A DNA stretch of 61,893 nt, filler included, from Sphacelaria rigidula (lineage: Eukaryota): assembly GCA_964200075.2 (NCBI GenBank). It is 5 parts of 5 records of this genome, joined end to end, with 100 filler letters (N's around TTAATTAATTAA, not from the genome) between each part and the next. Parts side by side here need not be neighbours in the genome. Positions count along the whole stretch, not along the records: positions 49,597 to 61,893 come from CAXNAA020003909.1; 4 more parts are not named here. One strand, 5' to 3'. Each line of letters opens with the position of its first letter. Within the stretch, counting starts at the first letter, position 1. The position numbers and the translations under genes were made by a program. Positions 15,801 to 61,893 of this stretch are shown here, one piece after another. A model generated the notes under the pieces. That model was not told the DNA's origin. It ran no database searches and saw only the letters and a program-made list of their open reading frames with translations.

Positions 15801-18800
15801 GGACCATTCACGGTTAATAACACCCTCCTGATAAACGGGTTTTCACTCCGTGTCGCCCCCACAACACCAATTTGGGCATTGTGATATGAGCACGGTCTGC
15901 TTATTTTGACAAAACTATCGACACTAGCACTTTCGAGTGCTCATGGAGAATGTTATGCAAAAAAAACGAAAAGAGACCATTCGTCGAAAATGCTAGACTG
16001 AGGTCTGTGCAGTAAAGGAGGGAAACACGATCTCGATCGTTAGTGTGAAGAACTGTATACGTATTCATTCATCTGAATAGTTACCGTTTCGTTGCGGAAG
16101 AGCCGGAAAACTGTGTTTATTGAACCAAAAACGGTCAATAATACCCTCCTGGTGAATGGGGTATCTAGCCCGTATCGCCCTAAAAACAATTTGGGCATTG
16201 CAGTTTGAGCGCGGCCTACAGGCTTTCCCCCTAAACCTACTGGCCCTAGCACTTTCAAGTAGTAATGAAGAATAGTACTCGAGGAAAACTAAAAAACTAC
16301 AACAACTGCGAATCCTGAAAAATTGTGATGCTGCCTACTACAGTGGAATGGATTCAAATCCGGGTCTATCGATTGGTGATTGATGAGTTGTCGCGCGTTG
16401 ATTGATGCGTCAGTGAGCGTAATATATAGAAGAATAGACAGAAATACTGGCTAGAAAAAATCGAAAAGCGGGACAAGAAGTAAAAGGGAGAATACGAGAA
16501 CAAACTGAGTAAACTGACTTCCCATAGTTGCCAGGCCAATTGCTAGTGACGGCCCCTACAAAAAATACCGACATACATCAAGCAGGTCTTCAGAATGGAG
16601 GCCGCACACGAAGGAAGGCCGCCGAACGGGTTGTGGCTCATCTATCCAAAGACTCTGATATTCAGTGAATCCATATTATAATTGCCGTTTTGTTTTTTTT
16701 GCTTGTTGGCATATGGCTCACCAGTGCACCGTAGTACGTTCCGAGAGGACATGGTTCTGGGTACGCGCTCGCTTCTTCGCAGTAGTGACCAGCCGTGCAC
16801 TGTCCGCCATAGTCCTGGCCTACCGGAGCATTCAGTACAGCGCCGCTCATGCAGTAGTACCCCGCATCACAGTTACCACTTACAGCCGCCAGACCGTTGG
16901 TGGCGCAATATCTGCTTTCGATAGATAAATTCGGCCACAGGTGTAACGTTGCCGTCCGAGCAACGGCCAAGTGAGTGCTTGGCTTGGGTTCGGGTACAGT
17001 GAGCTCGTTATAGGGCACGACGGCCAGGAATTTCGAAGCGCAGCATCTGCTTCCAAGCACTTTCCGTGCGGAAATATTACTCGTCGAAGCATTTTACATG
17101 GGACGCACTCTTCTACGGATTTTTTAAATAATCCACGAAAAAGTCTACGGTGCTCCTACTATCGTTCTATCAAATCTTCAGCAACACGAAATCAATTATT
17201 TTGCCACCAATATCAAGTATGTAACAATTTGCACATCTCGGAAAAACATAGTTCCCAACATCACGATCGACCCAGCGCCCAGCTATCCTTGCATGTCCGG
17301 CTGCTTAAAGCGGAGGTAATGGAAGCTCTGTCGTGAGAATGTGTCACATGAACGTTTTTTTCGGAGGCTTCGCCGGTCTGCGCACTGCCTTGCACAACCA
17401 TTTGCTGCGAGTGGTCGACTGCCGCAGGAAAGATCAAAATGGCTACAAAACTCTTTCGTCAGGACGGTGCTCGAGATGACCCAACTAAGAACGTATCGAG
17501 ACGACCGACTACGTCCGCCAGAAGGAAACACGCCTTTCCAAACGCATCGGGCGGTTAAAACGCACGAGGACCAACGGAGGCTGGCCGTCCCCCCAAACGA
17601 TGGGAGGAAGAGCTACAGGGAAAACCTACATGCACTACGGGTTGTTCCGAACAAAGGAGCGCGACGGAAATGGTTCGTCTACGGTATAGAGTTGAACGAT
17701 GCATACGAGTGGGTCACTGCGGCGGAGAAGATGGGCGAAGGGCATCTTGGAGTCGAAAAGGAGCGGAAGAGTTCGAGGACACGTGGCGATGCCAAGACAA
17801 ACGAGAATCTGACTGCCGTCACAAACGAGAGGCTGCTGGGTCGAGAGCCGCCGATCGGGGAATCCTATCTGCGCCTATAGGTTGTTGATTGTGTCGTTCG
17901 TCGGTGGTTCCGCGGTGCCCCCTATGCACCTGCTCCGCTGTTCTACATCCTTTGGGTTTCACCACTTCTGTAATCTCCTTCTCTACTCCCCCTTTCCTCA
18001 TCTTTCTCTCTATGTACGTGCTCTTTCCTGTCGGTGTATGCCAGAGCAGCTTGATGTCTCGTTTCCATAAGGTCTACAGTCTACAGTTGAGAGGTTTCAC
18101 TCCCAAAATATTGAGGCCGTAGTAGATGGGCCGCAATCTTTTCTCACGGCCTCCTGTTTTCTACGATTGTATATATATATATGTGTGTGTGTGGTTTCTG
18201 CGCAAGGCCTTGTCCACCAGAGCCAAGTGGCAGAGGCCGGGCATTCCTAATTTGTTTTTTTCGGGGGTTTTTGTGTATTTTTTCTTTTCTTTTCTCAGTC
18301 TACTCTGTTGGTTTATTCTACATTTCCTTTTTTTTCCTCATTTTTCTTCAGAGAGTGTTTCCGTTTTATTTTGTCTCGGGTGCGTCTACCATGTTGGACG
18401 ATGACCACGACTGGATCATGACTCCTGGGGGATCACTTAAAGGGTCGCAATCAACCAATTCATCAATCATACCAGTATGACTGTGCGGCTGCCTCGAATT
18501 ACTATCCCAAAATGAGGAGTGCATCGGGGATACCGTTGTTGCTGCGAAAATACACGATAACTCTAAAAGTTTCAACTCTCATTGCATCACTCGGAGAGTT
18601 ACTTTTCGATAAATTGAATCGACGAATCGACATTGTGTGCAACTCACTTTCCCGGATCGCAATCTGTGCACTGCGTCAAGTTGGACAGGCCGAGAATAGA
18701 GGAATACGTGCCCGAGGGACAGAAGGTGAAGTAGTCGCTCCCCCCTTCACAGTAGGAGCCTGCCGGGCACACAGTTGCGGACGTACTCGCAAATTCTTCG

Positions 18801-37778: not shown

Positions 37779-39827
37779 TTACGGAGGCAAATTGTTAATA
37801 GGTCCTCGGCCATATTTTCGTCAAAAAATATTCAAATCCAACAAACTTTGGCGCAAACAAACCGCACGAAAAAATGCAGTTCGCCCCCGGGAAACAAAAG
37901 AAAGAAAAAAAAACGTTGAGTTATGGCAGATTTTTCGCCGTTTTTTAGTCACCCTGAATTCGGCGCTGGGGTGACAAAAGTTTGGAAAATTGACCACAAC
38001 TCGCTTGATATTCGATGGTTGCCCGCAAACGATGACGCTAATGAACCGCACAGACGATGAAAACACGAATCAAAATACTTGGGACCAGAAACAGCTTTCG
38101 GGTTAGGTTTGGCCGTATTTGTCGAAACTGTCCCGGTCCTCCTCAACTCGGCGCTGGAGCGGAAAATTTGATGAAAATTGGCCGTAATTCGCCCAATATT
38201 CGATGGCTTCTCACAAATGATGGCTCTAACGAACCGCACGGACAATGCAAAAACGTAACAAACGCTGTGGCGCCGAAGATATTTTTCCTGCAGAGTTTGG
38301 CAGAATTTTTCAGCACTATCACGGTGCTCCTTAAGTCGGAGCTGGGGCGGCAAAGTTTGGGAAATTGGCCGTAACTTGCTCAATATTGGATGGTTTCTCA
38401 CAAACGACGGTTGTAATGAACCGCACGGGCGATGGGAACACGTACCAGCACATATTGGTGCCGAAAACCTTATTCCTGTAGAGTGTGGCCGTATTTTTGG
38501 GCACTGTACCGGTTCTCCACAACTCCGCACCAGGGCGGAAAAGTGTGAACGATTGACCGTAATTCGCTCAAAATTCGATGGTTTGTCGCAAACGATGGCT
38601 CTAATGAATCGCACGAATGATGGGAACATGTATCACAGCACATTGGTGCCAAAAACGCCCTCCCTGTAAAGTATGGGCGCGTTTTTCAGCACTGTCCCCG
38701 TTTCCCTCAAGTTGGCGCTGGGGCGGAAAAGTTTGAAAAATTGACCATAATTCGGTCAAAATGTGATGGTTTCTCACAAACCACGGATAAAACGAACTGC
38801 ACGGACGATGCGATCACACACACGTGCACTTCGCCGTCGAAAATGTTTTTCTGTCGAGGTTAGCCATATTTTCCAGCATTGTCCCCGTTTTCCATTATAG
38901 GACGTTAGGGCAGAAATTTACGGCTTTGGGGCAGAAAGGTTGATACGCCATCAACGACGCCGAAAACAACCGGGTGACCGATGCGGTCTCTCCCCAAAAA
39001 ATCAAGCGCGAAATATAGAAGAGATGCTGCTGTTCACTGCAGTCTTTTATTTTACGAGGTTCAATGCTATTTAACGTCAACCCGTCCTGGTGCGAAACCA
39101 CGGCAAAGCTTGGATGGACCTGGGAGGATTGGAGACAGAAGCCCCCCAGAAGAGAAGAGAAAGCAGATTCTTTGTAAAATAGCCGCATGGCTGTGGCGTT
39201 GCAAACCTTCGGCAGCTATAGAGCTACATTCTCGTTTCGAGGACCCTGAGATACGTTCACACCAGTTCAATACCGTCCTCCGATCCCTCCCCCACGTTCA
39301 TGTACTCTACAAACTCCGCAGATAAATCAAGTTCCTCCTGAAGCTCCACGCCATCATCCTCCACTATATATATATACAGCTGCACAGGCCCAAACTCGGG
39401 GTCCTGATACTCAACTGGGCGTATCTCAGAAATTCAAAATTCCGGCTGGTGGGTAACAAAGGCCTGGTCCTCAGTTATCTCGTGGAACCGGTTCTATACG
39501 CTGGTTCTCTAACATTGGTTCTATCTTTCATTTCCCGTGAAAAGAAGTATGTTTTGAAGTGCCTGTTTTCGTTGCAATCTGCTGCACGCTGTGTTGTGTT
39601 TCTCGCCATGGGACCTGTATCGTCTGACAGCTGCAGTCGTCACCTTTCGTTTAATGCTACGGGAGGCACCGTGATCCTTCTGTGCGCCTTTAAACGTGTT
39701 CATATCAAGTTTTGAAAAAGCTTGCAAAAATGCAAAAATGAACCGTCGCGAAAAACGAAAAATCTCACCTGTGTTTCGAACGAGAAAAAAACGTGAATTT
39801 GGACCTATTAACAATGTGCCTCCGTAA
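37779..39827. mobile_element. ~2.05-kb non-autonomous TIR element (TA-flanked) carrying a 188-bp tandem array
   Basis: TIRs TTACGGAGGCAAATTGTTAATAGGTCC and GGACCTATTAACAATGTGCCTCCGTAA (26/27 match), TA on both sides. Confidence 0.85.
37900..38900 (+). repeat. Degenerate tandem repeat, 188-bp period, ~5 units
   Basis: A CGGCGCTGG-like anchor recurs at 37961, 38149, 38337, 38525 and 38713. Confidence 0.92.
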
Positions 39828-49596: not shown

Positions 49597-49667
49597 GTCT
49601 AACTCCAAATATTGCCCGGCGCATCCGCCTGCAAACTTTCATGCAGCCTCTAGGCTGGCCCAGCTCG
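49597..49667 (-). mobile_element. Terminus of the same TA-flanked element
   Basis: ...GGCTGGCCCAGCTCG followed by TA. Confidence 0.7.
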
Positions 49668-49974
49668 TAGTTCAAGATAGTCCTCGGAAATTTACGGCTC
49701 GTGGACAGGTGTAGTATTGGATCTTAGTCTAGAAACCAAATCCGGATCTTTGATCCCTTGACCTCGAGGGTAGATCACCTGCTGAATCGGCATCAATTTT
49801 CACATGAAAAAAGTATACGTGATCCAGATAGACTACCCTACCCTGCTCCTGACGTGCTCCTAGCGTGCGCAGAACGCGTTGCGCCTTCAACACCGATTTG
49901 AGGTCTGGCAACGCATACTCCGCCTAGGGAACACGCCACACACCCCGTGCCCGAGGATTCTCAGTATGTCTTCG

Positions 49975-50016
49975 TTGGGGTTGGGGTTAGGGTTAGGGTT
50001 AGGGTTAGGGTTGGGG
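49975..50016 (+). repeat. Interstitial telomere-like (TTAGGG/TTGGGG)n tract
   Basis: Four TTAGGG units flanked by TTGGGG variants. Confidence 0.85.
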
Positions 50017-52067
50017 TAAGTAAGTGTTCTTCGAAATGCATCAGCACCTGCGCAAACCATAATTTTCCGAGAAATATCTGTCAACTACCAAGTAGTGAAG
50101 TCACCTCGATTTCGAGTATGATGTACTGTACATCATCCTTGTACATGGGCACGGAACGCTGGGCCGTGGCTGGGCTTCTCACTCAAGACTCCGGTTTGGA
50201 GGATGATTCTTGGCAGGCAGCGGCAACTTCTGTGTGTCCAGGTGCCCCTTGGAGCAGGATGCGTTTGGTGTCCGCTTGACGAAGTTATCCCCCCAAAAAA
50301 ACGAAATCGATAAGGGTTTTAGACTGGAAAAGTCTAGCAAAAACACTATCGCAAGGACCCGATCGCAAGAATCACGACGCAAAAAAAAGTCGCAAGGGTC
50401 CGATCGCAAGAATCACGACTCAAGAATCACGACGCAAAAACGGAGTCGCAAGAAGCCTCCCAGTCGAATTTTTACCCGCAGCAGAAACCAACTTCACTTT
50501 GTGAAACTGGGAAAAGAACGAAATCAATCGGGGTTTGAGAGTGGAAAAATCTAGCAAAATAGAAAAACAAAATGTCGCAAAAAATGAATCGAAGAAATTC
50601 TGTCGCAAAAATCCTGTCGCAAAAAACCGGTTTGTCGAATTTTGACCCGCAGCAGAAATCAATTTCACTTTTCGAAATTCGAATACGCACGTACTGCACT
50701 TCGAAATCACGAAGTGCATATATCGTAATGGATTTCATTTCTCCGCCATTCGTAGTGCAGCGTTGCAGCCAACCAAGCTGTAAACCGAGAAAAATTGCGC
50801 GGGGATAATTAGTGAGAGGTGGGCGTGAACCTGATGATCGTTTTGCGTCGTTTTCACCAAAGTGAGGCTGTATTCCACGACGAACTTATTCTTGGAATGA
50901 CCCGGATATCCATGGAAAAGCTATTACATATTTCAGCCATGCAGAAGTACTGCAGGAATTTGTACTTACACGAACAGATAGGTGCAAAGTACCACAACGG
51001 ATACTAACGCACTGGGCTACATGATGCGCACGACAGAAATGGAGTAGAACGAACCTCCGCGGTACAGCAAGCTGTACAAATATATCAACAGTAAATCAAT
51101 CTCGCACGGCCGTTGGATGAAGGGTAAAATAAAAAGCAAATACCTCAACGCCGAAGGAGGCGAGCACACAGAGGAGCTCTCTCACGAACGCAGCTTCGAC
51201 ACACTCAACTAACCATAACTTTCCGCCGCCAATTCTCGGCACAACACAGTGGGCGCCGGAAAATTATCAAGGAGCGCGCCGGGGAAAGGACCTTCGTAAA
51301 CGTGATTTCATCGACAGTTACAATGATGTTGACCACCACAGATGTTTGAACTGGCCTAGCTCCGCAAAATCGTTCCAGAGATCGCGTTTAGGGATAAGTA
51401 GCGACGTAGGTGTCGAAACAGTCGTGTTTCAGAGGTACTTGAAGGCAACTCCGCAAACTTCTCGGTCCAGATGTGAATAAACCGTTTGGTGCGGTCATCT
51501 ACCGCTTCGCAAAAAAGGCAACAGCAAAAAAAAACATGGCCAACAACAAAATGCATCACCGAAATACCGACAACAGCAAAGGGCGCCCTCACAAGAGCTC
51601 CATATACTCAAAAATACACTAGATGAACCTAAGGCGCTTGTGCACCATACTCAGCAAATTTCAAATCCCCTGGGCTACCTGAACAAAGCACTACCCCTAG
51701 CCATCTCCAAACACCGCCACGGGACCTGCGCTGAATGTGAACAACGCGTCAGACCCCAGCACTGTGAGCTACACATACCTGTACAGAAGTCATCCCGTCC
51801 TCCCCACTGGACGGTTATCGGTTGGATGCGGCATGGGGTCTTGCTACGGTGCACTCGTTAAGGGTGCGAGGTCCCGCTACAGTGCGGTCGAAATCTAAAA
51901 TGTATCTCTTGCATTTTCTTGATACTCTAGATTCAATGCACCACCACAATTTTTAATCAACACGGTAAAAAAAAAATCTATTCGCGTAATGACCGCGGAG
52001 AAACGTTATAATCCTGACTGAATCGGAGAGTGATTTCGACGACGCTTGAAAAAAACAACTGAACCTG

Positions 52068-53006
52068 CTAATCCGTGTGCCTCTCGAGGAAGTCGTTGAA
52101 CCTTTGACAGTATGTCTGCGGATCTACACACGAAATCTCCGCACGGTCGTGCGCCAGGGATTTGAAGAACGTTTCTCCGTGCTTTCTGGCGTTATATTCC
52201 TGTCCATTTGCCATCACCCGAGAAAAAGATAATAATAAACAGCAGGAAAAGCACGCGCATCAAAGATAACGGCACGAATACGTTAGAACGAACAAACGGT
52301 ATCATATCTCAGTATCTTGCACCTCGGCATCCATCAGCCAATGTCCTCAGGGTCCCAACCAACACGTGCCACCAGCTACTACACCCATCCGGCCTTCAAA
52401 CCGACGGGCTTTTGTTATGAATCCCGACGATCACGCGATTAATGTGGTTGACGATACACAAACGGGTTGACCAGGACTCACCAGCAACAGAAGGGGGAAT
52501 GAGCGATTTGACGCTAATCTTGATGCCTGCCGGGATAGCCAGGTGTTCTACGACAAGATGATCATTTCGTGACATCCTAACTGCCAGTCATGCAATTCGG
52601 GCAAAATATGCCCCGCCTCCCCAACTATCTTGAATGATATCGGCAACAAAGCACCCGACAACAAACGCTTCGCCCTGCAGCACCAACACCAGCACCAACA
52701 GCACCAGCGGTAGTAGCAGCAAGAGCGGAAGTATGCCTCGACGTACTACCATCGGCTGATACGCTCGTGAGCCTTGTTCAGGGACCCCGCATCCCGAAAC
52801 CAGGCAAGTGCCTGTGCAACAACAACAACGATGTTAATGCGTGAAGCATAAATAACTTCACCTGAAGGATATCGATGATGCCCATAAAGTAGATGTCCTT
52901 TCCCCTTTTTCCAGACACTTGCGAGTCCAGCCCTCCATCTCCACGTCGCCGAACAGCACAGGAAACCCCACTCTCCGGGGGCGCCAACCGAGGCTCTGGT
53001 CTTGGG
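52068..53006 (-). CDS. Phosphatidylinositol phosphate kinase (PIP5K family), last two coding exons
   Basis: Exon 53006-52862 ends DIYFMGIIDILQ. Exon 52199-52068 reads EYNARKHGETFFKSLAHDRAEISCVDPQTYCQRFNDFLERHTD*. Together they give the PIPK C-terminal GIIDILQxY and ISxVxPxxYxxRF motifs, joined by a phase-0 GT-AG intron. Confidence 0.92.
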
Positions 53007-53787
53007 CTGCCGACGAAAGTAAGTCGAAAAGGACAAAACAAATGAAAACAGACACAGAAACAAGAAACACGATGAACGTCTCCACAATTTGAATCTCTCA
53101 GTGGACCTTTCAAAATACTGCAGTCGTTTTCGTACGGTCACAGTCAAGGAAATTTTTACAACGGTTACTTGTATCGCATGGCATCGTGGCAGGATGAAGC
53201 GGGATAAGACCAGAGCAATCGTAGAACCTTCGGTTACACAGTATTATTGGGCAATAGGTACTGCCGGGAAGAGAGTTGGTGTACAAGCAAGACGCTGCGA
53301 AGTTACACGATTCCCGCAGTCTGATCATGTCACGAGAGTTGCACAACAAGCGAGTGAATCAATACGAGACTCCTGACGTGAAATTTCATGATACCATAAT
53401 ACCGGCGGGATTTCCGTCAACAACATTCGACGTAAAAGCAACAGAGTTTCTTACTCTAGCATTTCCAACAGGAAATAGCAAGCGCATTGAACACCCACAG
53501 GAAGTTCAAAATTGCAACCGCTTGGCATCTGGGGCTCGTCTCATGGACACAGCAGCCCTGGCACATCAAGGCTCAGCACCAGACGAAATTGGCATGGGAT
53601 GTTGCTGGCGAAAAACGTGCAGCGGCACATCTGAACCGTTCGCCTCATTGGCCACGTAGCAAGTAGAAATCGCAGCATGCACTGCAAAACAACACATTGT
53701 ACACAACGTGGCGCAGAGATTAGACAGAAGTACCAAGACGAGGATAACTAAAGCCGATTACACACTGTGACATGCTCCGCTGCTTAC

Positions 53788-53922
53788 TTTTCAACCTCCA
53801 GCTTATCAGTAGCGAATACCTCTACACCATCGAAAGGCCTCGTGCACAGATAGGCGACTACAAGATGGAAGAAGAACGCCTCGGCGTCACTGACAAAGCC
53901 GTCTGTTTGGGGATATGTACAC
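53788..53922 (-). CDS. Putative upstream exon of the PIP5K gene (insert region)
   Basis: TTCTCAG acceptor and GTAAGC donor, 135 nt; the only open frame is phase 2-2, matching the next exon. No recognisable motif. Confidence 0.5.
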
Positions 53923-54199
53923 CTGAGAAGTGAATCATGCGTCCGTGTATATGAAAAATAAACAGCAGACACTTATCAACATGTAATCCATGTACTTGGT
54001 CGAGTAACGCTGACAACTCAACAACAAATACGGCGCTAGTGACAGGTACACCTGCAACTAGCGCGAGCGGCAGACCAGGTATGAGCTATTTTCTTCGTCT
54101 TTCTATTCAACCTGCCTCGACCAAAAGGCCCACACCATAATCGTTCCTTACATATTCATGTTTTCTTGACAGGAGAAGCAGCAGAGAGAGCTAATTTAG

Positions 54200-55340
54200 A
54201 TGTGCGGGTTTGGCTTCCTACGATCCGGTTACTCAAAGTGGAGGTGGTGAAAGCAATGCTGTCCGGGTGTGATACGTGGACGCTGCGCCCAGAGGATTTC
54301 GAGAATCTGTGTACTGCCCAGCACAGCCCTTACTGCGAGCAGTTGGCTTCTGCAGGAAGAGCCGTGGTGAAAATAAGAGTCTTTCGTACAGAGCTGTGCT
54401 CAAGATTACCAAATGCGAACCTATAGAGATGGCCATCCGCAAACATCAATTCTGCTTCGCGAAGGCCCTTGTCTGGCAGAATGAAGAATGCGCCCCGAAG
54501 CGCGTCATGTTCGGGCGGCTTGACTGCACAAGGGCACAAGGGTACTGACGGGCATCGGAAGCACTGGGGAGACCGCCTCAAGGAGGACACGCGTGCCCTA
54601 GGGGCTATCCGACGTTGGGAAGAAATAGGGAAGTAGCTCGTTGACGATGGGGAGGTCAGACACTGGCAAGATTGGGCCCCTGCCGCTGAGAATACGAGCA
54701 CATGATACTTGGGGGTCGTGAAAGGGGCGGACGGGTTTAAGGAGACCCGACGACCCCACGGCCTCCGGCAATCCAACATACGCCGCAAGCAAGAGGTTGT
54801 TAGCGTTGGTAGTGGTATACATTAGAGGCACCATCAGTGGATAAAAAACAATAACAACATATCCTAGCGGCTGTCGGCTTCTCTTCTCGGCTCGTAGATC
54901 TACGTCTGTTTTCTACTCCTGCTTACTTACTTCGTTTCAGGTTTCCTCCTCTTCCCCTTTGTAATTATTATTATTCCTATTTTTCTGTTCCTCACTTCTT
55001 CTTTCTTCAGTTGATTTTGTTTGTTTTTCCTGGTCTCACTGACCCTGCGGTACTAGTGTTCCGTGTCTCCTGCCTGCAGAGGTAGGGTTGACCGCTCAGA
55101 GTTCCTGCCCACCCGTGCGGTTTCAGTGACCTGAGTTGCAACTTGTTTTGACCGTCTTACTTGTTGCGCGGGCTCCTTGCTTGAAGCCCTGGTACAGGGT
55201 TGTCGAGTGTACCTCTCATATTCGGTACCACTTACTCCTTAGCCTGGTGAATTGTGCCGGCTCACTTTTGCTTGTTTCTTTTTCTTCCTTTTGATATCTC
55301 CCTATTTCTATCGAGTTTTTTTTCAGCGCGCATTTTCCGT
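54200..55340 (+). mobile_element. 5'-truncated RTE LINE (post-RT region plus 3' UTR), in a probable PIP5K intron
   Basis: IRLLKVEVVKAMLSGCDTWTL, LLRAVGFCRKSRGENKSLSYRAVLKITKCEPIEMAIRKHQFCFA, PKRVMFGRL and HWGDRLKED, with frameshifts. Confidence 0.85.
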
Positions 55341-55420
55341 TTGTTCACATTGGGTTGCATACGACGAGCTTGTGATCATGGGTGAATTCGCAGCGGATAT
55401 ATTCATGTGCGGCATTCAAC

Positions 55421-55692
55421 CCCGGTGGTGTAATGGTCCGCCTGTCGCCATAAGGGTGAAAAGAACGAGGGTTCGACCCCCGATGCGTTGGGTTTTTTCT
55501 TCGTAGTACCTCTAATTTCCACCATGGAAAGCGTGAGAACGTGAACAAACAAAATAGTCTACTGAGTTCGTTTGACATGGGTTGACGCGGTGCGGGAGTG
55601 CTGACCAAATCCGCGAGACCAAAACGCAAGGCGTGTACTAGATGGGTTGATTCCTTGCGACCACAGACTCGTCCCGAGGAAGGGGAGGGGTT
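55421..55692 (+). mobile_element. tRNA-derived SINE, second family
   Basis: A box GGTGGTGTAATGG, B box GGTTCGACCCC; 3' end GACTCGTCCCGAGGAAGGGG shared with the element at 23822-24099. Confidence 0.7.
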
Positions 55693-55788
55693 CAAAGTGC
55701 AACAAATAAATAAATATAATCAAATAATCTTTTTTTTTTAAATCAACAAGTCGTTCAATCAGCACGACGTAAAATGCAGACAACGTAC

Positions 55789-55928
55789 ATATTTCGGCGA
55801 GATGGTCGTCTTGCTCGTCCCCGACTGGCCGCCGCTGATGTGGACGTCCTTGTAATGCAACCCTGCGCAGTGCTGCAGCGTGATATGGACTGTTCCCGGA
55901 CGCCGCTTCCCTCTTCGAGCGATCCATA
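55789..55928 (-). CDS. Putative upstream exon of the PIP5K gene (low-complexity insert)
   Basis: TGTGCAG acceptor and GTACGT donor; a phase 0-2 reading (YGSLEEGSGVREQSISR...) is compatible with exon 53922-53788. Confidence 0.45.
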
Positions 55929-58562
55929 CTGCACAATCAATATCAATACCAAAAAAGAAAAAAATAGAACGACATCAACATGGAAGAGAGGAGACGCAAA
56001 ACAACATCGCCGTCAACACGAACGGAAATTCGAAGAAATGAATGAAAGACGCAATATAAGATCGATTATAATTACATGAAAGATTATCACCCCATCGATC
56101 CCTCAATAGCGACTGGGACGTGAAATAGGATTATCAGCAACGCAACAACCCAAGGCATCGATAGCCACATCATTGTCTGCGTCAGCGTCAACATCACAAT
56201 GCCAAACATCGACGTGAACATAAAAATTGTTGGAATATGTCCCCCACGTGTTCGACACCAACCACAGCACGATAGATTCAGATGTGGGTGAAATCGAGAG
56301 TGAATCATCCCTCTGAAGGTGGGAATAAAGCATGCCTCCACATCTCTACAAACTCCCATATTTCGGCGGGAGTAAGTAGAAGCTTGAAACTACGCGCCTC
56401 CGTTGCAGTTGGTACAACAAGCTGCTGTTTTCAATTACCACCACAAAAGTATAACTTCGGCCATTCTCCATATATTTTCCCCATCAGAAATGGTACTGTC
56501 CTAGGTGTCATCCCTCGCATGTGGCCTACCCGAAAACTACGGACCAACTTCCTCGTGGACAACCCTTTAGCCCACCTTCACAGCTCCGCCACGGCCGCGA
56601 GTGAATTGACCAACGTTTTCTCATAGTTTGCGCTGAAAATAGCAACGTGACGAACACGCGGTGTACCGCATGTTCGCGACTAGCTGACGGCAAATTCGAA
56701 GTTCGAAAACACAAATACAAACACGCAAGGAGCCATGATACATCCACACACCATACCGCCCACACATTCGCACTTACCTAGTATCCATTACTAGAATTTG
56801 AGAGTACCACATTCGCATTGCGTGCAAACCGATTTTTGTGCCTTAGTAGTATAGCGTGTGCATGAGGAACGAGTCGGAGGTTGCCAACGAGACGTGGATG
56901 ATTGGAACAATAACAATACCATACGTGTACAGACAGCACAGACAGTACAGACTGTTGCTGACGACAGATCCCCCTACAGGCGGTACAGCACAGCACGTTT
57001 CCATCAGCATGTAGTACGTGTACAGTCTGCGACCTACTGCTGCCAAGGCATGTAGAGTATCAGATTATCACCACGTGCGACCGAACTTCGTACTGTAGTG
57101 TGTGCGTGGGGAAGGAATTGGAGGTTGAACGGAACACGTGGACGATTGTCACACGGCGGCATACTATACGGTGCAGTAGGCAGTGCTTTTTTCATACCCT
57201 ACACAATGAAATGCGATTCTTAAGTAGAACACTACTTTATTGCCAGAAAGTGGGATGCATATCGCTTGCATGCACGACTCGAAATGCAATCGGAGCCAAG
57301 CACCACCACCGTACCAATAGGTGGCTGCGGATAAGGTCGTTAAAGCGAAGATAGCCTTGGCCAAAGAGGCGAGCGCTGTCAGGTTATCGATTAGTGCAAT
57401 GCAGACAATATACTTGGTTGTGGCTCCTAATACCAAAGTGACAGTGAACACATGACGTTCTCTTCTCGACCGTCCTCTTTCTCAAGATAAAAAAACAAGC
57501 CCGCGGGAAATGTTCTCGTTTTGAAATGCAATTTTGAGCGCCCTGGGGAGCCTATCCGAAAATCTGGGCATTTCTTTCGTGTTCCTCAACTCGCAGCCTG
57601 CACGATGGAATCTCTACTTTCGGTGGTTAGGCCACGTTTCTCTTGTTAACTTTCGGCCGGAACACATTCGAATGCGGATCCGACAACATGTTACAAAATC
57701 TTCAAGGGCAGGTCGGGTAGGTTATATGCTTTTGAATACTCGGGTGAATCAACCCGACATTCACTATACCCAAGCTTTGGGTAGATTGGGTACGACCTCG
57801 AACCCAATATTGGGTAGGCAGTCTCAGCAATACCTGAGCACAGAGTTTGACTTGGATATGACCTCCATACTCTACTCAAAATTTCGGATAGATTGGGTAC
57901 GACCTCAAGTACTCTACAGAAACTTTGGGTAAGCACTCCGAGCAATACCTGGGCAAGGAGGTTCACTTGGGTATGACATCAATACTCTACCCAAAATTTA
58001 GGTATGCTGGGTACGATCTAAAATTCTCGACCCAAAATTGGGGCAGATTGGGTACGATTTCTACACTTCACCCAACCATTGGGGAAGGCCCTGTCTTAGC
58101 GCATCATTCTTCGATCGAAAAAAAGGTGCGGTGAAATTGATTTGAGCGAATTCGTTCATTTCTCGCGAGTTGGATCCAAACGGATTTGCAAGATCTCGTT
58201 CGAAAAAAGACAGTGAAATGAATGAATTCGTGAAGCGGTACTTGTCCGCTCGCCTTCAGTACAGTACTGTACCGTCTGCGCTCTTTTCAAACAGTGTGCC
58301 TGAGCGTGTGTCTGCGCATTTCGTACAGCAGGGTGTGAAGGAGACGGGGGCAACGTGCAGTACAGACAGCGCAGGATTATATGTACTCTCTGCTGATAGT
58401 GCGACGTGAAACGGACTTGGACAACATGCAGTTTTGTACTGCCTGCACTGTCTATGAATGTACGCAAGTCGATCGTCCACCCTACCACGCAGTTCCGTCG
58501 CCGATCTTCACCATGAAAAAAGATGCTCAAGTTTTCGCCGACAAATAAGAAACATGACATAC

Positions 58563-58691
58563 CCAACTACTGCAGTGTATCTATCCCCGTGCCCAACTCG
58601 TGCACGATGCTGCAGGGTTGCAGTGGTGGCTGAGAGTGACTTGTGTGGGATTTGCATGGTTCTGTGACCGGGTGGTATCTGGCGTGGTGAT
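58563..58691 (-). CDS. Putative further upstream exon (PIP5K gene?)
   Basis: CTTGCAG acceptor and GTATGT donor; one open frame (SPRQIPPGHRTMQIPHKSLSATTATLQHRARVGHGDRYTAVV). Confidence 0.35.
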
Positions 58692-58844
58692 CTGCAAGAT
58701 AGGAGTCAAGTACCCCTTCGTACCTTTCCTCCACATATTTTCGATTGAAAAAGCCAACATCAGGTCGGGTAGGGTATGAACTTTTAAACACTCGGGTAGA
58801 AAACCCGGGTATTCACTTTTCCCAAGGTTTTGGGTAGATTGGGT

Positions 58845-59199
58845 GTGTGTGTTGTCATCCCATTTATTCTCGACGTCGGTCTACACCTTCCGGTATATGT
58901 GGGCGCACCAGTCGGGGTCACACAGGAGGACGGTCAAGACAGGGGTTCTTTCTTATTTGTTTTAGCTCTCCACCTTCCTTCGGCGGTGCTTGCCTTTGTT
59001 TTTTATCGCGAAAGGGGTTCGTTTAGCGGTCCCTTTCCCTCGTCGATCGTCAAGTCGAATTTTGTGTGCCCACGACATAATCGCTCTCCACTGTTGGGCA
59101 CTGTGTGAGAGAAACTCCCAGATCGCTCCGAGACTCGAACCCACGACCCAATCGCCAGAGGGTTGCGAGGTTACCAACTGAGCCACAGGGGCGACCGGC
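58845..59199 (-). mobile_element. tRNA-derived SINE with (CA)n tail and 7-bp TSD
   Basis: Head GCCGGTCGCCCCTGTGGCTCAGTTGG (A box) and GGTTCGAGTC (B box); ATTGGGT duplicated at 58838-58844 and 59201-59207. Confidence 0.9.
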
Positions 59200-60774
59200 T
59201 ATTGGGTACAGCCTCAAAAAGTCTGACCAAATTTTGGGTAAATTGGGTACGACATAAAATACTCTACTCAAATATTGGGTAAGCACTCTCAGCAATACCT
59301 GGCTATTCAGTATGACTTGGGTATGACCTCAATACTCTACCCAAATTTTAGGTCGATTGGATACGACGTCAAATACTCCACCCAAATATTGGGTAACCAT
59401 TCTAAGCAATACTTCAATATAGAGTATCACTTGGGTATTACCTCAATACTCTACCCAAAATTCGGGTATGTTGGGCAAGATCTGAAAACCCTCCCCACAC
59501 TTTGGGTGCGATTTCAATGCTCTACCCATATGGTTGGGTACTAAGAGCATGACTTTTAAAAATACCGAGTATTGGGTATTATACCCTATTCGACCTGCCC
59601 TTGAAGTTCTTGTCATATTGTACTGACCGCAACAAAGGTGGACGACCGTCATAAACTTCTTGGGGAGGCTCTGTCACACATTATCGCATATGCCGCAATC
59701 CAAACATTTGTGATGTCCCCGATGACATTAATTTGATGCATGAACGTCAACAAAGGTATTGCCTTAGCGCTTTGTCGGGCACACAGGTCAACACAACTAA
59801 CGGTGAAAAGAGATACATCCAGCCAACTGTGGTGTGTCAAACCCAAGCGGTCGCATCACGCAGAAGGTCGCGTAGGTAGACATGCACATGCTGCTGCCTT
59901 ATGGCACCAGGAAAAACATCGTGTGCATCATAAAATACATGAAGCAGCAAAGCATGTGTTGTACACAGGCTTTACACCTACGCTTACTGGACACAATATC
60001 AGAACAGAGAGCCGACCAAGCTACCGAGGGTTCACGCACATGTACGTCATAACACCGCTGTATTGCCTGCTCGCGCAAATAATTCAGAAGAAATATGCGA
60101 TGATTGTGCATAAATGTTGAACGCGTGAGCACTTCTGTTTTCGTTTGCCATACTTTTCAACAATTTCCTTCCTCGGGAGAGGTCCGTCATCTCAAGGAAC
60201 CAACCCATGCCGCCCGAGAAATAAACCGAACAGATGATGAACATCTGCTGGGAATCAAACCCCTTGCTCCGCCCTGACCGACCAAGATATACGTCCTCCG
60301 TCCCATAAGTTTGCTTACTTATGCTTGTACGGGCGCTTAACTGGGTTTGCTTTTTTCGTTTGTTAATAAACGATTTCTTGCCGTAGTTCTTGTTTTTATT
60401 TTTATTTTATTTTTTTATTTTTTATTTTTTTTAGGGGGGGGTTCTTGAGTTTTGGGACATCCAGTTTTGGGGCCAAGCAAGGAATATCGCCATCACATGT
60501 CTTGCACACTTTAGCACCACCCTGCCGAGAGGATGGTAGCCTACTTTTCCGACTCGCTTCGCTTCCAGGTTTCGAGAATGCTCTCTTGACGAAAATCTAG
60601 TTGGGCATGAGAAATTGCAAGGGTCGGACGAGTTATTGATTCGTATGGGAATTACTTGATGTTCATAGAGTTGATTCGTACCGTACGAATCAATCCTGAA
60701 GCTTTGTTTCCAGCGTTGCAACCCAGGTACGCGCAGCCCAGGCACGTGGAATGGCGCAAAAATTGCGTGGAGAC

Positions 60775-61893
60775 CTTCTTGACCAACGGTCACCTTTCTT
60801 CTCTCTTCCGAGCAATCAGGCCTAGAAAATCGTAGATTTGGTGATGGGAACCGGCCTTCCTTCCTCCTGGCCTGCTCCCTGCGGGGGTAGGCCGAGGACC
60901 GCTAGTGATCTTAAACCACACACAAAGACCACCAAACCAACGAAGGCGGAGCAGGGAAAGGTAAGGGACACAAGCCCGAGCATCGTGTCGACGTGGACTC
61001 TGAGTTTGGGGCGACAGGAGATACAGGGGTCGTGAGACACAGTGTAACTCATATCGCACTAAAATTTCCAGATACCACCCCCTTCCCCCGACTGCCCATA
61101 CTGGGGTGGGCAGAAGTCCACCTGTGATCTTAGACCACCATCCAAAGATCATTCAACGACAGTGGAGACACGAGTCCGAACCTCGTATCGACGGGGAGAC
61201 TACGTTAGGAAGATAAGAGGCACCACGATCACAAGAGTGGCGTGTGCTTCGTTTCGGAACAACTTAGCGGCGGCATGCAGCTAAACGCTAAAGCATCGGT
61301 CTGGACACCGGGGTTATGCAGCAGCGGAGAGCGCAGTGGGGACAGCCCAGACAGGAATGGAAGGGCTGCGCATCGCGTGGGTACGCACACCAGGAGCGAG
61401 GAAGGAGTAGAGTCGGACAGAGCAGGAGAGTTGCACCTGCCTGTGAAAAAAGACAAGCACCGGGCTAGCAATAGCCAGAGAGTCCAAAACGCGATAAAAA
61501 TCGAGCAAATAAACAAGAGCAGGAAAAAGAAGAGGAGGGACCGGGCGAGGCGGAGGCGTGCTAGGAAAGCAGCACGAGTAGCCCGGGCGAGACAGCGGAG
61601 TCGACTTGTTGAGGTAGCTACTTACAATGTCAGAACTCTAGCTGTGAAAGGGGCCAATGGATGGGGGCGAGACTACAGCGTCCTGTACGAGGCCGCGAGA
61701 CTTAACATCTCGCTGGTAGGACTACAGGAGACACGAAAGGCGGGGCGAACAGACTGTACAGCAGCCGGGTTCAGAGTCTTCTGCTGTGGGAGCGAGTCAG
61801 GTGGGCAACACGGTGTGGGTATAGCCGTGAAAGAGTCGATTTGCAATAACGCCACCTATACCACTGAGTACGTTGACGAGCGCCTCATGGCAA
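60775..61893 (+). mobile_element. RTE LINE, 5' end (leader plus ORF start)
   Basis: Intact APE ORF preceded by a ~500-bp leader. 60775-60845 is also homologous to window 6-76, so it is repetitive. The true 5' boundary is uncertain. Confidence 0.8.
61275..61893 (+). CDS. RTE-clade LINE ORF N-terminus: PAM2-like peptide, basic tract, AP endonuclease (truncated by the window end)
   Basis: ATG at 61275 is the first after an in-frame TAG at 61206 and is open for 206 codons to the end. APE motifs VATYNVRTL, LVGLQETR and GQHGVGIAV. Absent from the ORF track, presumably because it has no stop. Confidence 0.92.
   Translation, partial: MQLNAKASVWTPGLCSSGERSGDSPDRNGRAAHRVGTHTRSEEGVESDRAGELHLPVKKDKHRASNSQRVQNAIKIEQINKSRKKKRRDRARRRRARKAARVARARQRSRLVEVATYNVRTLAVKGANGWGRDYSVLYEAARLNISLVGLQETRKAGRTDCTAAGFRVFCCGSESGGQHGVGIAVKESICNNATYTTEYVDERLMA

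Follow-up and report, generated by a model that had tools for sequence, protein, structure and literature searches.

A PAM2w-type motif at the N-terminus of an RTE-like LINE protein in Sphacelaria rigidula, and its possible docking to poly(A)-binding protein

How the enzyme of a long interspersed nuclear element (LINE) selects the RNA that encodes it, a property termed cis-preference, is an old open question, and it is raised here by an open reading frame (ORF) at the end of a stretch of DNA from Sphacelaria rigidula (GenBank assembly GCA_964200075.2). The whole stretch analysed, hereafter the window, comprises 61,893 nucleotides in five parts joined with filler, the last of which (positions 49,597 to 61,893) comes from record CAXNAA020003909.1. 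At 61275-61310 on the plus strand, twelve codons (ATG CAG CTA AAC GCT AAA GCA TCG GTC TGG ACA CCG) encode MQLNAKASVWTP, which the first-pass annotation had likened to PAM2w, the Trp variant of the PAM2 motif that binds poly(A)-binding protein (PABP) at its MLLE domain. Sequence and published consensus agree with that likeness: L3, N4, A7, W10 and P12 of the copy in the window all fall in register with LNxxAxx[F/W]xP (PMC7356810). In MLLE complexes, the Leu and the aromatic residue occupy two hydrophobic pockets and the Asn and Pro form a turn between these anchors, and Trp may stand for Phe, as in PAM2w, and Phe for Leu, as in eRF3 (PMC7356810, a paper on the LARP4B-MLLE structure). The explanation considered probable, on comparative grounds, is that a PAM2w motif at the N-terminus of the LINE protein docks to the MLLE domain of host PABP and tethers the enzyme to its own RNA.

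The ORF that begins at ATG 61275 is open in a single plus frame to the end of the window at 61892, and 206 amino acids of it are visible. An in-frame stop lies 22 codons 5' of 61275 with no ATG in between, no ATG is present in any plus frame of 60860-61274 (2000 shuffles gave a mean of 5.4, with none in just 0.25%), and the second in-frame Met is residue 205, within the endonuclease. M1 must therefore begin any working protein, which upholds the translation start assumed in the first-pass annotation, and the PAM2w-type motif would accordingly be the first part of the LINE protein to be made. Contigs of other copies of the element, obtained from four public sequencing runs (two of them possibly of RNA) and 80-99% alike, begin to align at ~60859-60925, and so the 5' leader is roughly 415 nucleotides long. 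A look-up of RNA data for 60900-61893 yielded no entry.

The ORF continues into the start of an APE-type endonuclease. Residues 115-192 match Pfam Exo_endo_phos with an E-value of 0.0058 and 16.9 bits, which is below the cut-off of 24.5 bits because the end of the window interrupts the domain. The relative P0001 is full length, possesses both APE and reverse transcriptase (RT) domains and is 75% identical to the window ORF (tblastn, residues 1-207 against 61275-61892), and the full-length relatives P0001, P0022, P0026 and P0186, of 1199-1240 amino acids, possess Pfam PF03372 and PF00078 alone. Since the full-length relatives hold Exo_endo_phos and RVT_1 and no further Pfam domain, the window ORF is identified, by homology, as the 5' part of a single-ORF LINE encoding APE and RT. 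The RTE type is marked by one ORF in which an APE at the N-terminus is combined with an RT, while RNase H and zinc-knuckle domains are missing. These features were all found in the relatives, the window itself showing only the start of the APE, and the group is here termed RTE-like. With regard to an upstream ORF1, the 415 nucleotides ahead of the window ORF, whose 5' boundary is approximate, are ATG-free, and ORFs of 1199 amino acids in relatives lie on contigs of 4.4-5.3 kb. Ectocarpus sp., a brown alga, is the sole source named among the relatives, through entries titled 'unnamed protein product'. Hints of a place among RTE or RTE-X come only from a distant match to a 'Craniofacial development protein 2' entry, a gene that derives from an RTE/BovB element, and from the census of transposable elements in Ectocarpus. 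A metagenome scan gave 11 loci, of which none covered the N-terminus of a close relative, and one (L004) was a 35% identical relative without the motif.

To establish where the motif occurs among the relatives, 298 proteins (133,973 residues) were searched with a strict PAM2 pattern, an ELM-like expression not derived from a tool. The pattern gave 51 matches, against 1.7 expected from a shuffled rate of 1.27e-5 per residue, and all 51 lie at the N-terminal motif site, with none in the APE, RT or C-terminal parts. A complete N-terminus, defined as at least 99 residues before the start of the APE, is present in 38 of the 179 rows with a mapped APE start (37 relatives and the window copy). The strict pattern is found in 21 of these 38, in forms such as LNPNAPAWTP, LNPEAPVWTP, LNPKAPAWTP, LNPYAPAWTP, FNPNAKEFIP, LNPNAMVFVP and LNPGAVEFFP; seven possess only a looser form (LNPQV[RK].FVP, LDPAAAVFCP), and ten possess neither. 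By reading of the alignment, one of the ten begins in the middle of the motif (MVFVP...), two are apparently frame-shifted and four have unrelated sequence ahead, and these seven are taken, on that reading, to be truncated, frameshifted or chimeric gene models; the other three come from more distant families without the motif (P0204, P0211 and P0122). In many automatic models (P0011, P0186, P0195 and others), the initial Met stands for a conserved GTG codon, properly Val, so that an apparent N-terminal 'truncation' in the database often reflects start calling and not loss of the motif, as do many of the absences among shorter models. In the largest cluster (P0186, 2648 members), the 97% identical member P0286 has MGFKLNPGAVEFFP, with the motif LNPGAVEFFP, and in the P0001 cluster all nine of the listed full-length members (1199 amino acids) retain MRLNPEAPVWTP unchanged.

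The distribution of conservation within the motif was determined from 18 aligned representatives, three motif-less ones included (Table 1). The conserved positions are those that contact MLLE in known complexes, and this correspondence is the strongest point in favour of the motif. Pairwise identity averages 0.42 over the motif, 0.26 and 0.17 over the two parts of the linker that follows, and 0.48 over both the basic block and the APE; the motif is thus clearly kept in sister families while the linker diverges, which is the test that the first-pass annotation had proposed. One relative, P0080, has two tandem PAM2-like motifs within residues ~9-33, LDPAAAVFCP and LVPAAAEFYP. Paired PAM2 motifs are also a feature of eRF3.

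Likeness to PAM2 was then assessed with the Pfam PAM2 model (PF07145), which has a gathering cut-off of 20 bits, and with profile searches of known structures. Peptides of 30 amino acids from the Phe-type relatives P0026 and P0022 score 23.1 and 20.9 bits, respectively, both above the cut-off, and the corresponding peptide of P0024 scores 12.7 bits. As whole models, P0094 (159 amino acids) scores 19.0 bits, P0050 12.7 bits, P0190 11.7 bits and P0108 11.5 bits, and 10 of the 17 relatives tested gave no match. A profile built from 11 N-terminal sequences (seven W-type and four F-type) was searched against 177,635 distinct PDB sequences, among which the top match is the Paip2 PAM2 peptide solved with the C-terminal domain of PABP (1jgn_B, E 1.1e-4), followed by 'superPAM2' (8smo_B, E 0.0038), with the third match at E 0.79. 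The motif is judged to be an inherited element of the PAM2/PAM2w class under selection, not a product of chance.

To trace the history of the motif, a quick maximum-likelihood tree with SH-aLRT support was constructed from 23 near-full-length proteins over 1098 columns, 10 motif columns included, and rooted on three relatives that are ~27-30% identical; the window copy is not a row of this tree. The group splits into a Phe-type P0186 clade, a clade that unites the Val7 form with the motif-less P0204 and P0211, and a third clade, where P0026 and P0022 form a Phe-type branch whose sister is the W-type one (P0184, P0001, P0258, P0025; SH-aLRT 100). Three major clades of the group possess the Phe form (LNPxAxxFxP); the Trp form is confined to a single clade, which is home to the closest relatives of the window copy, such as P0001. 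The simplest reading is that the motif was ancestral to the group, underwent a single change from Phe to Trp and decayed in a few lineages.

The motif sits ~112 residues N-terminal of the endonuclease, and its setting is taken from a relative, P0003, which shares 74% identity with the window ORF and whose AlphaFold model was built on an alignment of 15 rows (mean pLDDT 62). Residues 8-64 of P0003 have a pLDDT below 50 and the first secondary structure appears at residue 60 or later, where a long helix (residues 60-111) runs across the Arg-rich block (pLDDT 50-74 in the block) and leads into a confident APE fold. Because residues 8-64 have a pLDDT below 50, the motif is predicted to be accessible at the free tip of a disordered tail. 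PAM2 motifs typically sit in disordered tails.

In the proposed mechanism, the motif would dock into the MLLE domain of the host's PABP in the cytoplasm. Since no other part of the protein leaves the ribosome earlier, the PABP that it captured would be the one on the poly(A) tail of the mRNA under translation. The enzyme would thereby be bound to the RNA that encodes it, which could provide cis-preference and the assembly of a ribonucleoprotein without an ORF1 protein. A possible added role would be to shield the tail from PAM2-dependent recruitment of deadenylases, as LARP4 does.

Several observations weigh against this explanation. The window copy differs from the family at positions 5 (Ala) and 8 (Ser), and with these two departures and 206 amino acids visible it may be a decaying copy; at position 8, the change of T to C at 61296 that would turn Ser into Pro is the majority letter among the other-copy contigs and fits the usual 'AP.W' of the family. 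Neither the window copy nor its peptide has a Pfam PAM2 match at E <= 10, the W-type relatives score at most 12.7 bits or give no match, and when the entire protein is scanned, P0026 scores just 16.8 bits and P0022 is not among the matches listed. The Pfam scan proposed in the first-pass annotation is therefore positive for the 30-residue peptides of P0026 and P0022 and negative for the copy on which the proposal was based. Searched on their own, the seven-sequence W-type profile and the window peptide likewise have no PDB match at E <= 10. No model score of the W-type itself supports its link to PAM2, for which the pattern and the homology with relatives of the Phe type are the basis. Among the relatives, the motif is genuinely absent from three more distant families (P0204, P0211 and P0122/P0221) and is therefore not indispensable, the relatives' N-termini derive from automatic gene models of which some are GTG-started, and LINE relatives whose identity is no higher than 30%, some of them named as Symbiodinium, Riccia and arthropod entries, show no match at the N-terminus. 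Position 7 is Val in one clade, and a residue bulkier than the Ala that faces the MLLE surface at this position has been described as unfavourable (PMC7356810). At the other end of the element, a poly(A) run 3' of the ORF was not seen in L001, the sole related locus with enough flank, and a recognisable tail is absent beside both of the related 3' fragments in the window (~17244-17828 and ~54160-54783), where, as in L001-L003, the true 3' end could not be delimited, L002 and L003 stopping ~150 nucleotides beyond the ORF. To our knowledge, RTE-type elements are generally without a genomic poly(A) tail.

Explanations other than tethering through PABP have to account for the same pattern of conservation. 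A chance match within a decayed copy is suggested by the failure of the window copy against the Pfam model and by its two departures from the family, yet at the shuffled rate given above it would hardly recur at one and the same place in 21 of the 38 complete N-termini without appearing anywhere else in the proteins searched, and this explanation is barely credible. Selection might instead act on the nucleotides, through start context, an internal promoter or 5' RNA structure, with the likeness to PAM2 being incidental; LINE 5' ends do carry internal promoters, and the leader here is repetitive and ATG-free. Conservation at the nucleotide level was nevertheless rejected, and is very improbable, because the periodicity of conservation fits a peptide motif in which the x positions vary freely, because the aromatic anchor stays even though Phe to Trp takes two base changes, and because families that are just ~45% identical in the APE still retain the motif. 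It is also improbable, though less so, that the N-terminus docks or is modified in another way, either on a ubiquitin ligase of the UBR5 type through its MLLE domain, on some other peptide-binding domain, or through N-myristoylation of the Gly that follows Met. MLLE domains do exist outside PABP and many copies start with MG, but the best PDB matches are PAM2 peptides solved with the domain of PABP, and Gly2 is variable (MR.., MQ.., MPF.., MHCQ..) while the PAM2 contact positions stay, on which ground N-myristoylation was rejected.

A further explanation, unlikely but of greater weight than these, accepts binding to PABP and differs in its consequence. The motif would boost or protect the mRNA of the element in the manner of LARP4/LARP4B or Paip1, displacing PAM2-bearing deadenylase adaptors and repressors and raising translation and RNA half-life. 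The PAM2w motifs of LARP4/4B are associated with longer tails and with mRNA stabilisation (PMC7356810), and since related 3' ends showed no genomic poly(A) tail, poly(A) is not a necessary starting place for reverse transcription. A single LINE protein per mRNA would, however, be a poor competitor of the abundant host PAM2 proteins unless it acted in cis, and the evidence does not separate this function from tethering, since both can hold.

Tethering of the enzyme to its RNA through PABP is the preferred explanation, and a contact of this kind has a precedent in print. Human L1 ORF2p has been proposed, partly on the basis of structure prediction, to bind PABPC1 directly and thereby to set cis-preference co-translationally (PMC7617806, 2025). 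The site concerned, the PIE, is an element within the linker after the endonuclease (residues 272-297) that is predicted to bind RRM1 and is needed for retrotransposition (PMC7617806). The proposal of the first-pass annotation is thus supported in part, in that the motif is conserved and the start codon holds, whereas the window copy fails the Pfam model and LINE-PABP contact as such had already been proposed in print. Coupling of a LINE to PABP by way of a PAM2 motif is plausible; a description of a PAM2 motif in a retrotransposon protein was not found in the literature searched, which covered titles and abstracts with subscription journals largely outside. If the explanation is true, a retrotransposon would take its place among the PAM2 carriers, and independent sequence-level support, from an unrelated group apparently without ORF1, would be gained for the view that LINEs grasp PABP. 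Short peptides suffice to measure the binding of PAM2 to MLLE, and single substitutions can abolish it, which makes the idea easily testable. A wider interpretation is offered tentatively: capture of PABP by the first residues would be the cis-preference device of these single-ORF LINEs, replacing the ORF1 protein and independent of the L1 PIE-RRM1 contact; direct capture of PABP would be a general and repeatedly evolved requirement of LINEs; and the change from Phe to Trp would be an adaptation to the MLLE pocket of the host or to competing host PAM2 proteins.

Table 1. Features of the LINE copy at the end of the window, and residues at the positions of the motif in the 18 aligned representatives
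Feature	Position	Strand	Basis or remark
Inferred 5' leader, ~415 nucleotides, two tandem ~210-nucleotide monomers, ATG-free	60860..61274	+	copy contigs start there; 5' boundary approximate
Start codon and PAM2w-type motif M1-P12 (MQLNAKASVWTP)	61275..61310	+	translation; same site kept in relatives
Motif core L3-P12	61281-61310	+	
Motif position 3			L/F 16/18
Motif position 4			N 15/18
Motif position 5			P 15/18
Motif position 7			A 12/18, V in 4 more
Motif position 10			F/W 15/18 (F 9, W 6)
Motif position 12			P 18/18
Motif positions 6, 8, 9 and 11			commonest residue just 4-6/18
Linker, residues 13-80	61311..61514	+	alignment of 18 representatives; disorder to ~residue 64 in model of relative
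Conserved island HRVGTH, residues 33-38	61371-61388	+	VSKH in other families
Conserved island G-E-L-H-L-P..KHR, residues 51-63	61425-61463	+	across families G-x-L-N/H-(L)-P then KHR
Arg/Lys-rich block, residues 81-111	61515..61607	+	mean pairwise identity 0.48; part of predicted long helix
APE-type endonuclease, first ~95 residues, ended by window edge	61608..61892	+	Pfam Exo_endo_phos, residues 115-192

The remainder of the N-terminal extension had been described in the first-pass annotation as low-complexity, a description that is incomplete given the conserved islands and the predicted basic helix (Table 1). The G-x-L-N/H-(L)-P island opens like the front half of a PAM2 motif (LNP). The Arg/Lys-rich block may serve in RNA binding or as a nuclear localisation signal. 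A second frame contains an overlapping ATG ORF of 50 amino acids at 61316-61468 on the plus strand (MQQRRAQWGQPRQEWKG...), which resembles the N-termini of models P0027, P0038 and P0069 and has most likely been picked up in frameshifted copies, without being a genuine second product.

The two monomers of the leader (60862-61085 and 61086-~61274) are roughly 60% alike when aligned, and several other-copy contigs start at 61083-61086, which is the monomer boundary. Monomeric promoters are known in some LINEs, and the tandem monomers are reminiscent of these. Immediately upstream, 60700-60855 is a separate and vastly commoner repeat, with a summed contig depth of ~1e6 against ~1e4 for the LINE, and within 60845-60855 many contigs diverge. 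This repeat is possibly a short element of the non-autonomous kind that adjoins the 5' end of the LINE. A second copy of the LINE was not found within the window, where only two old related 3' fragments are present; these, at ~17244-17828 and ~54160-54783, both on the plus strand, are degraded and show 26-57% identity to the final ~200 residues of the ORF. Other ORFs of at least 180 amino acids in the window include nothing related to the LINE. A tandem array at 38268-38851, of three ~188-nucleotide units that are 71-74% alike, is unrelated to the LINE motif.

The motif of the LINE group shares with the PAM2 and PAM2w motifs of cellular proteins (Paip2, ataxin-2, eRF3, LARP4 and LARP4B) the consensus, the Leu and aromatic anchors and the Asn-Pro turn. 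Its carrier, however, is an endonuclease-reverse transcriptase and not a host RNA-binding or translation factor, and the motif begins at residue 3-9. A position near the N-terminus within a disordered region is common to LARP4, LARP4B and the LINE motif, as is the replacement of Phe by Trp, which in the LINE group took place in one lineage. The La module and RRM of LARP4 and LARP4B are absent, in contrast, from the full-length LINE relatives, which show only Exo_endo_phos and RVT_1 in Pfam and share no other domain with these carriers; the LINE protein would act as a PAM2w carrier and is not a LARP. Curated LINEs of Ectocarpus with an endonuclease and RT build are classed as RTE and RTE-X, which are the abundant APE-type LINE clades of that genome (PMC12477816). 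These families resemble the element described here in their single ORF and their endonuclease and RT, and are the source of its sole named relatives, whereas PAM2 and PABP have no mention in the main text of PMC12477816. A functional parallel is the PIE of L1 ORF2p, which likewise represents a proposed PABP contact of the LINE enzyme itself and is N-terminally placed. The algal motif lies ahead of the endonuclease and is of the type that binds MLLE, whereas the PIE follows the endonuclease and is predicted to bind RRM1; the two also appear unrelated in sequence and belong to different LINE clades, and the algal element apparently has no ORF1. If both hold, the PIE-RRM1 and PAM2-type contacts would be convergent.

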